Below, piece by piece: positions 868-6,457 of a stretch of 6,653 nucleotides of DNA. Source of the stretch: a virus (lineage: Duplodnaviria; Heunggongvirae; Uroviricota; Caudoviricetes). The notes under the pieces are model-generated. The model worked only from the letters and a program-made list of their open reading frames with translations. It made no database searches and was not told the origin of the DNA. The stretch's first letter is position 1. Each line of letters begins with the position of its first letter. The stretch is taken from the IMG/VR virus record IMGVR_UViG_2541047174_000021. One strand, given 5' to 3'. Position numbers and translations under genes: made by a program.

Positions 868-1275
868 TTATTTATTTGCGCTTCTTTTGCGAGCTTTGAG
901 TAGTTCTTCAAAAAGTTTGTTGAAATTCTCAACTCGAGCACGCATCTCTGACAACAGAGCCTTTTGCTCTGACTCAGGCAGTGCGTCGAACAGTTGAAGC
1001 AACTCTTTTTGATCTTCTGTCAGATTGACTGGCTGATTATCTGGGATCGGTTCGCCTGGTTGCTTATCTTCATCTCCAAAAAGAAGCCAAGTCGGCGAGC
1101 ACTGAAGCGCCTGGCTCAGTGCGAATAATCTCTTCCCCGCTGGCTGTGTTTCATCTCTTTCCCATTGAGAAATTGTTACGTGAGCCACTTTGACCAGCTT
1201 ACCTAATGCGGCCTGAGACAGTTTTAATTTTTTTCGCCTGTATAAGAGGCGAGCACCGAAGGTTTCGTTTTTCAT
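868..1275 (-). CDS. dicA: DicA-like XRE-family HTH repressor (cI/c2 analogue), 135 aa
   Basis: 135 aa, the same length as E. coli DicA. Helix-turn-helix region (LSQAALGKLVKVAHVTISQWE) plus blocks I recall from DicA (LQCSPTWLLFGDEDKQP; EMRARVENFNKLFEELLKARKR). Divergent from a DicC-like gene. Confidence 0.85.
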   Translation of the reverse strand: MKNETFGARLLYRRKKLKLSQAALGKLVKVAHVTISQWERDETQPAGKRLFALSQALQCSPTWLLFGDEDKQPGEPIPDNQPVNLTEDQKELLQLFDALPESEQKALLSEMRARVENFNKLFEELLKARKRSANK

Positions 1276-1351: not shown

Positions 1352-1579
1352 ATGTTGAAAATTGATGCTATAGCGTTTTTTGGCAGCAAAACAAAGCTTG
1401 CCAATGTCGCAGGAGTTAGGCTGGCAAGCGTTGCTGCATGGGGGGAACTGGTTCCTGAAGGTCGCGCGATGCGCCTGCAAGAGGCATCCGGCGGGGAACT
1501 TCAGTACGACCCCAAAGTTTATGACGAATATCGTAAGGCAAAGCGGGCGGGGCGGTTGAACAATGAAAATCACCACTGA
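1352..1579 (+). CDS. dicC: DicC-like Cro-type regulator, 75 aa
   Basis: Size, divergent arrangement with the repressor, and recalled similarity to E. coli DicC (GSKTKLA, VPEGRAMRLQEASGGELQYDPKVYDEYRK). Confidence 0.85.
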   Translation: MLKIDAIAFFGSKTKLANVAGVRLASVAAWGELVPEGRAMRLQEASGGELQYDPKVYDEYRKAKRAGRLNNENHH

Positions 1580-2114
1580 ACAGGTTTGTGAGGCTCTGGA
1601 TACCTGGGTATGCCGACCAGGAATGACACAGGAGCAGGCGACGATATTAATCACGGAAGCATTCTGGGCTCTGAAAGAACGCCCGAACATCGATGTTCAA
1701 CGCGTCACGTTTAATGATGGCGAGGTTGATCAACGGGCGCTGGGCGTTAACCGGGTGAAGATATTCGAACGCTGGAAAGCTATCGACACCAGAGATAAGC
1801 GTGACAAATTCACGGCGCTGATTCCGGCAATTATGGAGGCTATCCGGATCAGCGATTTCAGATTGTATTGTGAAATTACTGACGGAAAAAGCATTACGTA
1901 CATGATCGCCGGGTTAAACAAAGAATATGGCGATGTGGTGGAGTCCGGGCTGCTTTTTGCGGATCCAGTTGTTGTGGAACGTGAGACTGACGAGCTTATA
2001 GAAAAAGCTATTGCTTTCAAGCACGCGTATCGTCAGCAATACCAATATTACTTTGCAGATAAACAAATGTCTGCCAGGGGGGCGTATGAGTATCGATGCA
2101 CTACGATGGGCTAA
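1563..2114 (+). CDS. Prophage early protein at the cII position, 183 aa (possibly YdaT-family regulator)
   Basis: Immediately follows the Cro-like gene; its ATG overlaps the dicC 3' end by 17 nt and its 3' end overlaps the next gene's start. The YdaT-family assignment is a weak recollection (IPAI-containing segment), not verified. Confidence 0.55.
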   Translation: MKITTEQVCEALDTWVCRPGMTQEQATILITEAFWALKERPNIDVQRVTFNDGEVDQRALGVNRVKIFERWKAIDTRDKRDKFTALIPAIMEAIRISDFRLYCEITDGKSITYMIAGLNKEYGDVVESGLLFADPVVVERETDELIEKAIAFKHAYRQQYQYYFADKQMSARGAYEYRCTTMG

Positions 2115-3126
2115 AAAGGTGAAAACCGGCAGTTCATCCAGTAAGTCAGTATTGACCTGGCTTGCTGATATGTGCGGTGCCGATTTGTGTGCATACCCGT
2201 CTGTATCTGCACTGGCAGAAGTAACGGAACTGAACAAAAAGACTGTGCAGGACAGCTTACGACACCTGATGGAGATTGGGTTAATTGTTGATACCGGTGA
2301 GAGAAAAGGCAGAACAAAGCAAATTGTGGTGTACCGACTTATCGGTGTAGAAGAAAGTGTTGCCGAGCCTGAATACACCCAAAAACGGGAGTCTTTAAAG
2401 GTGGGTAAAATTGGTGCTGTTAATAAAAACAGTACCGAAAATGGTTATGTTTCAGCACAAAACAGACCCAAAAACAGAACTCTTAGCTGCATGGAAAATA
2501 ACCAAAGACACCCAAATTTTCCATCAAAGACACCCAAAAACGGATCACGGAACCCAAAGGAACCCAAAGATCTAAACCCCACACATAACGCACGCGAGAG
2601 TGCTCCGACCAGTGAGCAGGAAGTTTTGTCGTTACAGGCAGCCCCCCCTGTATTCCTGTATGGCCTGAGCGAACCCATCGGAAAATTCCCGATGAGCGAT
2701 AGCTGGTATCCGTCACGGGATTTTCGACGACGGGCTGCGTTGTGGGGGATGGCTTTGCCGGAGACAGAATTTACACCTGCTGAACTTGCCGCCTTCCGGG
2801 ACTACTGGGCAGCGGAGGGGAAAGTGTTTACGCAGATTCAGTGGGAGCAGAAATTCGCCCGTCACGTAAATCACGTCAGGGCGCAGGTTAAACCAGTCAG
2901 CAAAGGGGTAAACCATGCAGCAGCACCAGGTGGCACCGCATCACGGGCAGTTCAGGAAATTCGGGCAGCACGTGAGCAGTGGGAACGTGAAAACGGATTT
3001 ATCAGCGACGGAAACGGCCTGGAAGCTGTGGGAACTCATGGGGGTGGTTTATTCGAACCGCTGGATCCAGAAGAACGGGGCCGCACCTTCGAAGCTCTGG
3101 ATTGCACAGATTGGCGCGATGACTGA
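2086..3126 (+). CDS. Phage replication initiator / replisome organiser (lambda O-like role): N-terminal HTH, iteron-encoded linker, C-terminal DnaT-like domain
   Basis: The track ORF 2011-3126 starts at a TTG; I prefer ATG 2086 (MSIDALRWAKK), which has a G-rich SD (2074-2081). C-terminal segment GKFPMSDSWYPSRDFRRRAALWGMALPETEFTPAELAAFRDYWAAEGKVFTQIQWEQKFARH resembles the E. coli DnaT C-terminal domain (recalled). Low-complexity Pro/Lys/Asn linker is encoded by the repeat array. Confidence 0.8.
   Translation: MSIDALRWAKKVKTGSSSSKSVLTWLADMCGADLCAYPSVSALAEVTELNKKTVQDSLRHLMEIGLIVDTGERKGRTKQIVVYRLIGVEESVAEPEYTQKRESLKVGKIGAVNKNSTENGYVSAQNRPKNRTLSCMENNQRHPNFPSKTPKNGSRNPKEPKDLNPTHNARESAPTSEQEVLSLQAAPPVFLYGLSEPIGKFPMSDSWYPSRDFRRRAALWGMALPETEFTPAELAAFRDYWAAEGKVFTQIQWEQKFARHVNHVRAQVKPVSKGVNHAAAPGGTASRAVQEIRAAREQWERENGFISDGNGLEAVGTHGGGLFEPLDPEERGRTFEALDCTDWRDD
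2375..2570. repeat. Iteron-like direct repeats (candidate phage origin of replication) inside the initiator gene
   Basis: Exact 14-mer CAAAGACACCCAAA at 2503-2516 and 2525-2538 (22-bp spacing). Related copies ACACCCAAAAACGG 2375-2388, AGACCCAAAAACAG 2464-2477, AACCCAAAGG 2551-2560, AACCCAAAGA 2561-2570. An AT-rich stretch lies within the array at about 2401-2462. Confidence 0.45.
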
Positions 3127-3580
3127 GCAGCAAATCCGGCAGGTCTGCCGCCAGTGCATGGACCGCTGCCGGGCGGGTGAAACATGGCCTCCGGACCTGG
3201 CTGAGTTTGTGGCACTGATTTCGAAAAGCGGAGCCAATCCATTCGGTCTGACGGTGGATGCTGTGATGGAGGAGTACCGCCGCTGGCGCAATGAGTCCTG
3301 GCGATACGACGGAAGTGATAAGTACCCGTGGTCTCAGCCTGTGCTGTATCACATTTGCCTCGAGATGCGTTCAAAGGGGATTGAGCGCCAGATGACCGAA
3401 GGGGAATTAAAACGGCTTGCAGAACGGCAACTGACGAAATGGGCAAAGCATGTTAGTAACGGCCTGAGCGTTCCGCCAGTCCGGCGACAACTGGCGGCCC
3501 CCAAACGCCCGTCGGGGCCAACGCCAATTGAGTTGCTGAAACAGGAATATGAACGCCGGAAAGCGGCTGGTTTTGTTTGA
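2915..3580 (+). CDS. Lambda P-like replication protein (helicase loader), 221 aa from ATG 2915
   Basis: C-terminal half resembles lambda P (recalled), e.g. YPWSQPVLYHICLEMRSKG...LTEGELKRLAERQLTKWAKHV versus lambda YPWKSNAHYWLVTNLYQNMR...LTDAELRRKAADELVHMTARI. Best SD (AGGGG 2901-2905) precedes ATG 2915; alternative starts are ATG 3038 and ATG 3119. Start uncertain. Confidence 0.75.
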   Translation: MQQHQVAPHHGQFRKFGQHVSSGNVKTDLSATETAWKLWELMGVVYSNRWIQKNGAAPSKLWIAQIGAMTEQQIRQVCRQCMDRCRAGETWPPDLAEFVALISKSGANPFGLTVDAVMEEYRRWRNESWRYDGSDKYPWSQPVLYHICLEMRSKGIERQMTEGELKRLAERQLTKWAKHVSNGLSVPPVRRQLAAPKRPSGPTPIELLKQEYERRKAAGFV

Positions 3581-3613: not shown

Positions 3614-4348
3614 ATGGAGACTGTTTTTGACGCACTGAAAGCGATGGGAAAAGCCACGTCGGTATAGCTGGCTGCGCGACTTGATATCAGTCGTGAAGAA
3701 GTACTGAACGAGCTGTGGGAACTGAAAAAGGCTGGCTTCGTTGATAAAAGCGTATACACCTGGCGTGTGGCTGATAACAACGTTCAGCAGGAACAGCCAG
3801 CGCCAGAAGAAACCACCACGGCAACAGAAGCGAAAATCTCAGAGTGCGATTTAACCGCGACGATTGAACAACGCGGACCACAAACGGCGGATGAACTGGC
3901 TACGCTGTTCGGTACAACATCCCGCAAAGTTGCTTCAACGCTGGCAATGGCAATCAGCAAAGGTCGTCTGATTCGCGTAAACCAGAACGGTAAAATTCGT
4001 TACTGCATACCAGGTGATAATTTACCAGCAGAGCCGAAAGTTGAATCGGTAGCGGAAACCGATGGTAAAGCCTTTCCTCAGCCAGCCGGTGTTGCGTTAC
4101 CGGTACAGAAAGATGCAACACAGGAAGATATTAAAACAGAAACTGTGGCGGACATTGTGCAGTCGCTGCCATCGTTTACTGCAACGCGAGAAGATGATTT
4201 GATTTTGCCATCGCTGCATATGGCAAATCGCGAACTGCGTAGGGCGAAGAATCATGTCCAGAAGTGGGAGCGAGTCTGCGCCGCGCTGCGGGAGCTGAAC
4301 AAGCACCGGGATATGGTTGCCGGGATTTGTCGGAAGTCCGGGCAATGA
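3614..4348 (+). pseudogene. Tandem winged-helix (HTH) phage protein, 244 codons, interrupted by an in-frame amber codon at 3665-3667 (Ren position after P)
   Basis: Strong SD GGAGG (3603-3607) before ATG 3614. Frame reads [48 protein letters not shown] and runs without further stops to TGA 4346-4348. The TAG sits where HTH motifs usually have Gln/Glu. The track ORF 3767-4348 is the same frame restarting at a GTG. A second HTH-like segment is [33 protein letters not shown]. Confidence 0.6.
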
Positions 4349-4509: not shown

Positions 4510-4956
4510 CGCGATAACGGTCAAAAATTATGGCGCTGACACTTTTGTGCCACTGGAGATGACTGTACCTAAGTTCAGGGGAGAAGAACACGTCCGGTGG
4601 GATGGTCGGGCCAGATTTAAAGGGCAGGTCATGGCTCCAGCCTGTACGCTGGCAATGGAGGCTGCCTGGCGGGAAATTGATATGGGAACCACGCCACTCA
4701 GGGATTTACTGCCGGTCCAGAGAATAAATTCCTGTTACGGTTACACCACTGTGATCTTGCAAGTGCAGGAAAGTAGGTCTACACGGTAACGCGAGTGCGT
4801 GTAACTTTTGATGTCATTCCCGTAGAAACACCGGACAAATTTTCGCTGACAGGTCATGCAGAAGGTATAAATCTGCAGATTATGGACAATTACGGATATC
4901 CGGCAAGAGCCGGAAAAAGCATGCCGCCTCTAATTCTCAGTGGAAGATGGACTTGA
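4478..4956 (+). pseudogene. Fimbrial (chaperone-usher pilin) subunit-like remnant, frameshifted and 3'-truncated
   Basis: Frame 2 (4478-4789) has GRARFKGQVMAPACTLAMEAAWREIDMGTTPLRDL, matching the pilin N-terminal pattern F-x-G-x-V-x3-C...L-G-x-V (compare FimA GTVHFKGEVVNAACAV...VQLGQV, recalled), with a second Cys about 30 residues on. Frame 1 (4777-4956) continues with VTFDVIPVETPDKFSLTGHAEGINLQIMDNYG, like FimA GVQILDRTG. No in-frame signal peptide, at least one frameshift near 4775-4790, and it ends at the AT-rich boundary. Confidence 0.35.
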
Positions 4957-5015
4957 TTATACTCATTGCATTGTCAGAAATAGTTATCCATTAAAGGCTG
5001 GCTATTCCAAACAGG

Positions 5016-5043
5016 ATGTTGATTACAAAAATGTAATCAACAT
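5016..5043. promoter_or_regulatory. Perfect inverted repeat (12-bp arms, 4-bp spacer) upstream of the binding-protein gene; candidate operator
   Basis: ATGTTGATTACA (5016-5027), AAAA, TGTAATCAACAT (5032-5043), arms exactly reverse-complementary. Sits in the AT-rich region about 165 bp before ATG 5208. A perfect TATAAT is at 5070-5075. Confidence 0.3.
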
Positions 5044-5207
5044 GTAAGGTTTATACTCTTCAATATGCGTATAATTTTCCTTATTTTGTTGACTTTAAAT
5101 AACAAGCTATGCACGAGGTAAAGTCGGATAAGTTTATCTGGATGTAATATATATTATTTGTAGTGTTTATAACTTTATTTCATGATAACCAATAAAAGGA
5201 GTTTTTT

Positions 5208-6109: not shown

Positions 6110-6179
6110 GCGAAAACGGTTTGCTGTAACGGCAGAGTTAAGTAGGATTGCTGCGGGTGCTTGAGGCTATCTGCCTCGG

Positions 6180-6255
6180 GCATGAACACCAACGGCAGAT
6201 AGATAAAAGCCCCACCCGACTATAAATCGAAGTGAGGCCCCTATATGCTCGTCAC
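6180..6255 (-). ncRNA. sok: Putative Sok-like antisense RNA (approximate bounds)
   Basis: By analogy with hok/sok loci, the antisense RNA covers the mok SD/start (SD GAGG 6233-6236, ATG 6245). A minus-strand TTGACC -35 candidate is at plus 6283-6288; I found no convincing -10. Ends not determinable from sequence. Confidence 0.3.
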
Positions 6256-6457
6256 ATATAGATTGCCTCTTACGGACCGAAAGGTCAAGGAGAAGCAGGC
6301 TATGAAGCAGCAAAAGGCGATGTTAATCGCCCTGATCGTCATCTGTTTAATCGTCATAGTGACGGCACTGGTAACGAGGAAAGACCTCTGCGAGGTACGA
6401 ATCCGAACCGGCCAGACGGAGGTCGCTGTCTTCACAGCTTACGAACCTGAGGAGTAA
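6245..6457 (+). CDS. mok: mok-like reading frame (in-frame upstream extension overlapping hok), 70 aa
   Basis: ATG 6245 with SD GAGG (6233-6236). Reads MLVTYRLPLTDRKVKEKQA then the Hok sequence, the same layout I recall for chromosomal MokC/MokB. The region from about 6153 closely parallels the plasmid R1 hok mRNA leader (recalled). Confidence 0.5.
   Translation: MLVTYRLPLTDRKVKEKQAMKQQKAMLIALIVICLIVIVTALVTRKDLCEVRIRTGQTEVAVFTAYEPEE
6302..6457 (+). CDS. hokD: Hok-family type I toxin (HokD/RelF-like), 51 aa membrane peptide
   Basis: MKQQKAMLIALIVICLIVIVTALVTRKDLCEVRIRTGQTEVAVFTAYEPEE: Hok family signature, near-identical to my recollection of E. coli K-12 HokD (RelF). SD AAGGAG (6287-6292). 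Confidence 0.9.
   Translation: MKQQKAMLIALIVICLIVIVTALVTRKDLCEVRIRTGQTEVAVFTAYEPEE

Follow-up and report, generated by a model that had tools for sequence, protein, structure and literature searches.

The analyzed window, i.e., the whole stretch of 6653 nt, comprised the immunity and replication region of a lambdoid prophage of E. coli O157:H7; its segment 2000–3600 matched E. coli O157:H7 chromosomes at 100% and the 'PPompW' prophages at 99.7%. The genes were arranged in the following order: a DicA-like repressor (868–1275, minus strand; Pfam HTH_3), a cro-like gene (1352–1579, plus strand; Pfam P22_Cro), a cII/YdaT-like gene (1563–2114), an initiator gene encoding 346 aa (2086–3126, plus strand; ORF and PGAP annotation), a lambda-P-like helicase loader gene (3119–3580, plus strand), a DUF1627 pseudogene, paa and sok/hokD. 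The loader gene, which was identified by Pfam Phage_lambda_P (PF06992, E-value = 1.3 × 10−16), PHROG 109 'P-like helicase loader' (E-value = 1.8 × 10−54) and PGAP, was located directly downstream of the initiator gene, its start overlapping the end of the latter. Rightward transcription across the repeat array found within the initiator gene presumably originates in the putative divergent early promoter region of the repressor and cro genes (868–1579). No promoter-like or terminator-like sites were found at 2300–2700, and no DnaA boxes (TTWTNCACA) were found in the window. Past the 3′ end of the repressor gene lay 1.9 copies of the 23-bp tandem repeat AAGCTTCTTGTGTAGAAAAACCT (768–811), and CCTAAG/CTTAGG motifs, which may be operator sites, recurred near this repeat and in the repressor–cro intergenic region (1276–1351). 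The DUF1627 gene (3614–4348) carried an in-frame TAG at 3665–3667, and the region before paa (about 4514–5047) corresponded to a frameshifted fimbrial pseudogene in the annotation of the matching O157 record; both are signs of prophage decay beside intact initiator and P-like genes. A hok/sok type I toxin–antitoxin locus occupied positions 6155–6457, where the sok RNA (Rfam RF01794, 103.9 bits) overlapped the hokD leader and ORF; sok at 6155–6304 was the sole match in the Rfam scan of the window.

The product of the initiator gene matched the PHROG 1032 'replication initiation protein' profile over aa 1–298 (E-value = 8.8 × 10−91) and was composed of a winged-helix N-domain (aa 1 to about 92), a low-complexity linker and a DnaT-like ssDNA-binding domain. 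The HTH_36 profile scored 20.9 bits in the window protein, i.e., under the Pfam cut-off of 25, whereas relatives were above the cut-off (30.5–55.9 bits). The AlphaFold2 model of aa 1–100 (pLDDT 84.9) contained four helices and a beta-hairpin. A PDB fold search with the modelled N-domain gave generic winged-helix matches that were not discriminating (E-values of about 1 × 10−3 to 1 × 10−2), with the plasmid RepA N-domain and Rep–DNA entries (4pql, 5kbj and 4pt7) occurring amid many generic winged-helix proteins. The proteins retrieved in a homologue search with the N-domain were mainly truncated or partial and were used for a shallow alignment alone. The DnaT-like ssDNA-binding domain (aa 201–267, encoded at 2686–2886, plus strand) was recognized by Pfam DnaT (E-value = 9 × 10−17) and by PDB DnaT chains (E-value = 1.7 × 10−19). 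Identity with full-length DnaT (primosomal protein I) was rejected, as the NCBIfam PRK02854 profile matched the C-terminal domain alone, with 93.4 bits where the cut-off is 201. Judging from these profile matches, the C-terminus of the initiator is a DnaT-like domain and not DnaT.

Within the initiator gene, the motif ACCCAAA occurred six times (at 2377, 2466, 2510, 2532, 2552 and 2562), always on the plus strand and within a span of 192 nt, against an expected count of 1.3 per window in whole-window shuffles; synonymous recoding that retained the same peptide gave 0.4–0.8 copies, and six were never reached in 20,000 trials. The copies occupied codons 98–161, past the part coding for the HTH region and ahead of that for the DnaT domain (aa 201–267), which agrees with an earlier account of this DNA made from its letters alone (hereafter, the sequence-only reading), according to which the array codes for the linker between these two domains. 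The exact pair of 14-mers 22 bp apart described in that account was likewise found, with CAAAGACACCCAAA starting at 2503 and 2525 (start-to-start distance of 22 nt); the identical 14-mers were in different reading frames and thus encoded different peptides, QRHPN and SKTPK. All six ACCCAAA copies were present at the places claimed, but the true unit was CCCAAAAACGG with its flanks, and three of the six copies are not iterons: that at 2510 is part of a hybrid or inverted element, and those at 2552 and 2562 belong to a second repeat class containing GAAYC, present here as a 10-bp tandem.

Matches to the core with no more than one mismatch were limited to three array copies in the window and 13.6 kb of the O157 locus; the initiator ORF held these same-orientation cores at 2378, 2467 and 2533 together with decayed copies (codons 98–153), and no other repeat clusters were seen in the window. 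The first iteron, ACACCCAAAAACGGGAG (2375–2391; core 2378–2388, 0 mismatches), is read as T-Q-K-R, and its position (+292) and frame were common to the window and the loci L002, L007–L008 and L010–L016. It was followed by a weak, decayed copy, GGTAAAATTGG (2401–2417), placed by its register with the CCAAAAACGGG of relatives in alignment A2 alone, by a degenerate copy (2431–2447; core ACCGAAAATGG at 2434–2444, 3 mismatches) and by an iteron copy with the core CCCAAAAACAG (2464–2480; core 2467–2477, 1 mismatch). The region of the first 14-mer contained the hybrid or inverted element ACACCCAAATTTTCC (2508–2522), recognized from alignment A2 and a Klebsiella sequence; its counterpart in relatives is CCCGTTTTTT, i.e., AAAAACGGG in reverse. 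The terminal iteron (2530–2546; core 2533–2543, 0 mismatches), the core CCCAAAAACGG of which was invariant in 7/7 enteric sequences of alignment A2, was followed by the second repeat class, GGAACCCAAA GGAACCCAAA GATCTAAACC (2549–2578; TRF period 10, 2.1 copies). All of these elements were on the plus strand. In the same alignment, AAAGATCT was conserved in several enteric relatives, and GATC (Dam) sites at 2542–2545 and 2568–2571 flanked the second repeat block in the window.

The homologue set, obtained by tblastn and a pattern scan for the N-domain, comprised 65 loci. The N-domain was recovered in four phages, namely, Edwardsiella phage EPP-1, phiV10, Vibrio phage H20 and Acinetobacter phage LZ35, and in 60 species-level genomes (36–77% identity), and in nearly all homologous loci it was directly followed by an array with the core CCCAAAAACGG or a near variant. 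The unit conserved across the 65 loci consisted of this core and partly symmetric flanks and was longer than ACCCAAA. In the 550 nt past the N-domain, 235 matches to the core (≤2 mismatches) were found in the 65 loci, i.e., 6.7 per kb, versus a same-strand rate of 0.22 per kb elsewhere and an opposite-strand rate of 0.16 per kb (30-fold enrichment across the family) and versus 8.3 matches in mononucleotide shuffles; the shuffles and the outside-region rate served as the enrichment controls. The orientation and position of the core were fixed across genera, and the conservation of the core extended to such distant hosts as Acinetobacter and Vibrio. Core-to-core spacings peaked at 17–18, 24 and 33 nt across the family; helical phasing of the copies was dropped from consideration, as the spacing peaks share no single phase. 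The dyads in the flanks differed by lineage (GATCCC..GGGATC, GTCCC..GGGAC, GTACC..GGTAC and ACCCCC..GGGGGT), and the pairs −1/+12 and −2/+13 exceeded all 2000 permutations, whereas the pair −3/+14 did not, in a permutation control that ignores relatedness. The dyad comparison is suggestive of a partial symmetry of the core flanks. The co-variation of wing residues with core positions 8–9 was likewise suggestive, but it was not systematic. Tandem duplications of 24 nt were present in phiV10 and Vibrio phage H20; in phiV10 (locus L003, 2843–2945), the iteron core, identical to that of the resident prophage, was repeated three times (GATCCCAAAAACGGGAT, 24-nt spacing) and was followed by three copies of AACCAGTCATAT. 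Cross-talk between phiV10, which infects O157:H7, and the predicted origin of the resident prophage is a possibility. In the non-subscription literature searched, neither a description of the origin or motif nor experimental work on binding or replication by members of the family was found.

The second repeat class comprised two to three GAAYC units per locus, spaced by 12 nt in 42 cases and by 13 nt in 34 cases; counted from where the last core begins, the first GAAYC came exactly 17 nt later in nearly all loci. The units spanned two reading frames in 48 of the 63 loci, and a long A/T run was present behind the GAAYC block in AT-rich hosts. The spacing of 10 nt in the window was the sole one of this size in the set, and the window block (2549–2585) was 49% GC, i.e., not AT-rich. 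In RK2 and oriC, 13-mers form the unwinding element, and an initiator-binding array adjoining short-period repeats is the usual anatomy of an iteron origin with its unwinding element; the candidate for this element in the window is 2549–2578. The sequence-only reading had noted an AT-rich stretch among the copies. A drop in GC content was indeed present at 2400–2500 (32–37% versus 46% upstream and 56% downstream), but it was not conserved in relatives, which carry more GC-containing iterons at the same place; consequently, the stretch looks like a series of decayed copies, and it was rejected as the unwinding element, the short-period repeat just downstream (2549–2578) being the likelier one. 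The tandem pair of GGAACCCAAA (2549–2569) is prone to slippage: strain 2013C_3653 (L151) has one 10-bp unit, and the loss of the other frameshifts the initiator, resulting in an HTH-only ORF and a DnaT-like fragment.

The reading frames of the 235 core matches were distributed as 151/51/33; accordingly, 151 were in the frame encoding P-K-N-G, and 84 (36%) were outside it, with all three frames used within single genes (L019). In the P[KEQN]NG peptides, which were chosen at the protein level, proline was encoded by CCC in 94/94 cases versus 14% elsewhere in the same genes, lysine by AAA in 62/62 cases versus 66% elsewhere, and asparagine by AAC in 85% versus 54% elsewhere. The terminal block CCCAAAAACGGGAnnCGGAATCTA was conserved in E. 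coli relatives, Edwardsiella, Serratia and Yersinia, and its reading frame (0 or 1) varied with the genus. Based on the use of three frames, the invariable CCC, the frame-independent terminal block and the fixed orientation and position of the copies, it was concluded that selection acts on the repeats as DNA and not on the protein. Thus, the iteron-like array inside the initiator gene, proposed from the window alone, was upheld by the comparison of 65 loci and by conservation at the DNA level. The sequence-only reading had named homologues that keep the protein linker and lose the repeats as the case that would speak against it; the comparison gave the reverse, since the DNA repeats were kept and the linker peptide was changed by frame shifts. 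The linker is a clean natural case of dual coding, in which an array of DNA-binding sites constrains the linker codons and even the reading frame.

The same data bear on two explanations in which the repeats are not sites for the initiator. The repeats could be a slippage by-product of an indel-tolerant P-K-N-G protein linker, with no DNA function, and this would agree with the 151/235 copies in the P-K-N-G frame, with the 24-nt tandem duplications in phiV10 and Vibrio phage H20, and with the reality of slippage, as illustrated by the 10-bp unit lost in one strain and the frameshifted truncated ORFs in databases. Such an origin of the repeats is very improbable, since 36% of the copies lie outside the P-K-N-G frame, synonymous sites are fixed (CCC 94/94), recoding simulations always remained under the observed count, orientation and position are fixed across genera, and the block survives changes of frame. 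Truncated ORFs restricted to the N-domain (P0004, P0006 and P0007; Klebsiella-type relatives in public protein sets) have a shifted frame across the repeats, which suggests frequent frameshift mutations inside the repeat region. According to the other explanation, the A-tract repeats are slippery or hypermutable sites that give rise to N-domain-only truncated proteins via frameshifting or phase variation; the truncated ORFs in public data, which read the repeats in another frame, and the form C CCA AAA of the copies in one of the frames are in line with it. Nevertheless, the copies are spread over all three frames, no consistent structure lies downstream of them, the truncated ORFs resemble ordinary pseudogenes or contig ends, and the second repeat class and fixed geometry are left unexplained, so that this explanation is hardly credible.

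The array was found with different C-termini, namely, DnaT-like (the window, phiV10 and L017), Phg_2220_C (EPP-1) or unassigned ones. It co-occurred with the HTH_36-type N-domain and was gone where this domain was replaced; Rac-SA53 YdaU (DUF1376 and DnaT) had no CCCAAAAACGG array. Meanwhile, the DnaT-like half of the initiator and the P-like gene were 92.7% identical to Rac-SA53 ydaU/ydaV, and sequence comparison placed the mosaic junction at which this homology starts at 2570–2573 (about 2572), directly past the repeats and not inside them. The DnaT-like C-terminal/P module was present in 1257 E. coli genomes, at up to six places per O157 genome, whereas the N-module with the array was present in 909 E. 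coli genomes (about 900 of 5426 complete ones), usually once. From these counts per genome, it follows that co-resident prophages share the loader module and differ in the origin-specificity module; the separate exchange of origin-specificity and loader-interaction modules is the lambdoid pattern. The junction right past the array and the excess of genomes with the C-terminal/P module (1257 versus 909) could also be expected if the conserved block were a recombination linker that promotes the exchange of N- and C-terminal initiator modules among phages. However, a junction at the domain boundary is expected from function alone, it lies past the repeats and not within them, and the oriented copies, the fixed 17-nt distance and the conservation in Acinetobacter and Vibrio are left unexplained by recombination, which makes a linker of this kind improbable.

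The O157 allele had three good cores, compared with five or six in close relatives. The perfect cores at 2378 and 2533 were invariant among E. coli variants; the commonest difference was at position 2476, which is A in the window but G in the majority of related E. coli contigs, the G making the middle core perfect, and position 2442 was C in some E. coli, i.e., nearer to the family consensus than the window base. The O157 allele thus carries the weaker versions of these copies. Considering the three good cores, the two or three decayed ones, the 10-nt spacing and the stop codon in the DUF1627 gene, the O157 copy of the origin may be weakened. Two circular 'plasmid' records from PLSDB, NZ_CP148379.1 (8461 bp) and NZ_CP148543.1 (15643 bp), originating from different E. 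coli strains, held just the repressor–cro–initiator–P region and its neighbours. All three cores were perfect in both records, including the G at 2476, and no other replication gene was listed for them in the PLSDB gene tables, which are incomplete. These records could be lambda-dv-like plasmids or else products of local amplification or assembly artefacts, and they count as a hint toward the origin reading.

It was concluded that the region 2375–2578 is probably the replication origin of the lambdoid prophage, located inside the linker-coding part of its own initiator gene; comparative tests upheld the candidate origin proposed earlier. From the repeats and their conservation at the DNA level, the association of the array with the N-domain, the presence of a second repeat class and the domain identities, we infer binding, unwinding, helicase recruitment and origin activity along the following lines. 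The winged-helix N-domain of the initiator would bind the direct repeats (cores at 2378, 2467 and 2533) within its own gene, the bound complex would destabilize the adjoining block 2549–2578, and the DnaT-like C-terminal domain together with the neighbouring lambda-P-like protein would recruit host DnaB, while rightward early transcription would cross the site, as in lambda.

Most of the remaining weight belongs to the sites acting mainly in control. In that case, the repeats would be initiator sites with autoregulation or copy control as their main role (titration, transcription roadblock or copy pairing), and initiation would occur elsewhere; the roadblock variant implies that transcription into the C-terminal half of the initiator gene and the P gene is blocked. 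The DNA-level conservation and the linkage with the N-domain fit control sites as well, and the window is without a clearly AT-rich block beside the array. On the other hand, the block of GAAYC 12/13-mers at a fixed distance of 17 nt, followed by an A/T run in AT-rich hosts, fits an unwinding element better, and any other repeat cluster is absent from the window, so that a predominantly regulatory array is rather unlikely. It should be noted that the iterons of plasmids act in initiation as well as in control; a control role is compatible with the origin reading and does not exclude it.

A more tentative suggestion, which may be correct but is doubtful at present, is that the winged-helix N-domain together with the CCCAAAAACGG iterons and GAAYC 12/13-mers constitutes one ancient portable origin cassette with interchangeable helicase-recruiting C-termini, the likeness to lambda then being due to common descent. 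This putative cassette would be common, with little change, to the temperate phages found in Enterobacterales, Acinetobacter, Vibrio, Marinomonas and Pseudoalteromonas; the core had hardly diverged while the N-domains were down to about 35–45% identity. If the suggestion is true, the initiators of different phages (e.g., phiV10) might fire or titrate each other's origins, and the similarity to the lambda iterons would mean that the initiator and its site descended together. The predicted origin also provides a testable signature, in which CCCAAAAACGG repeats are followed 17 nt on by GAAYC 12/13-mers, and this signature is expected to be of use for locating the origins of related phages across many Gammaproteobacteria.

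Among the known systems, an active origin, oriJ, has been described for the Rac prophage (PMC3945230). The Rac module (ydaU–ydaV, oriJ) has the DnaT-like half and P-like gene in common with the window but differs in its DUF1376 N-domain; as the YdaU gene of Rac-SA53 is without the array, the origin determinant of Rac must be different. In iteron origins of the RK2 type, tandem direct repeats bound by a winged-helix initiator adjoin an unwinding element made of short repeats (PMC4081077). The theta plasmids (RK2, R6K, pPS10, P1 and others) resemble the locus under study in having tandem direct repeats beside short repeats, whereas here the predicted origin is inside a coding sequence and the helicase loader is phage-encoded. 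A Rep_3/RepA plasmid-type origin was rejected: the initiator of the window has one winged-helix domain and a DnaT domain instead of two winged-helix domains, and the DnaA box is absent.

A further close parallel is lambda, in which the origin, composed of iterons and an AT-rich tract, sits in the middle of gene O (PMC7466680). The lambda origin, with its four iterons and AT-rich tract, acts through the O-some and P-mediated loading of DnaB. The annotated lambda iterons, ATCCCTCAAAACGAGGGA, have the CCC/A-tract/GGG layout in common with the window family and lie 348–432 nt into gene O, in its linker-coding middle, compared with about 290–460 nt from the start codon here. In both cases, the copies have one orientation and are read in several frames, the P-like loader gene comes next, and the N-module with the repeats is exchanged apart from the C-module with P. 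The lambda-like arrangement recognized in the sequence-only reading is borne out with respect to the place in the gene, the layout of the repeat unit and the use of several frames. The differences are as follows: the core is 11 bp here and 18–19 bp in lambda, and its dyad symmetry is partial; the array is followed by a short-period GAAYC repeat (49% GC in the window) in place of a plain AT-rich tract; and the C-terminus is DnaT-like. The kinship with the O family at the protein level is weak, as Pfam Phage_rep_O (the lambda O family) gave no match in the initiator at E ≤ 0.01, matches to PHROGs named 'replication initiation O-like' were weak (E-values from 4 × 10−12 to 1.1 × 10−7), and the hhalign profile comparison of the N-domain with lambda O gave a probability of 4%; consequently, the initiator falls outside the Pfam-defined O family. 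By analogy, the predicted origin would nevertheless work like ori-lambda. The arrangement itself is well known and the initiator family is uncharacterized; the lambda paradigm is extended by this family rather than changed.
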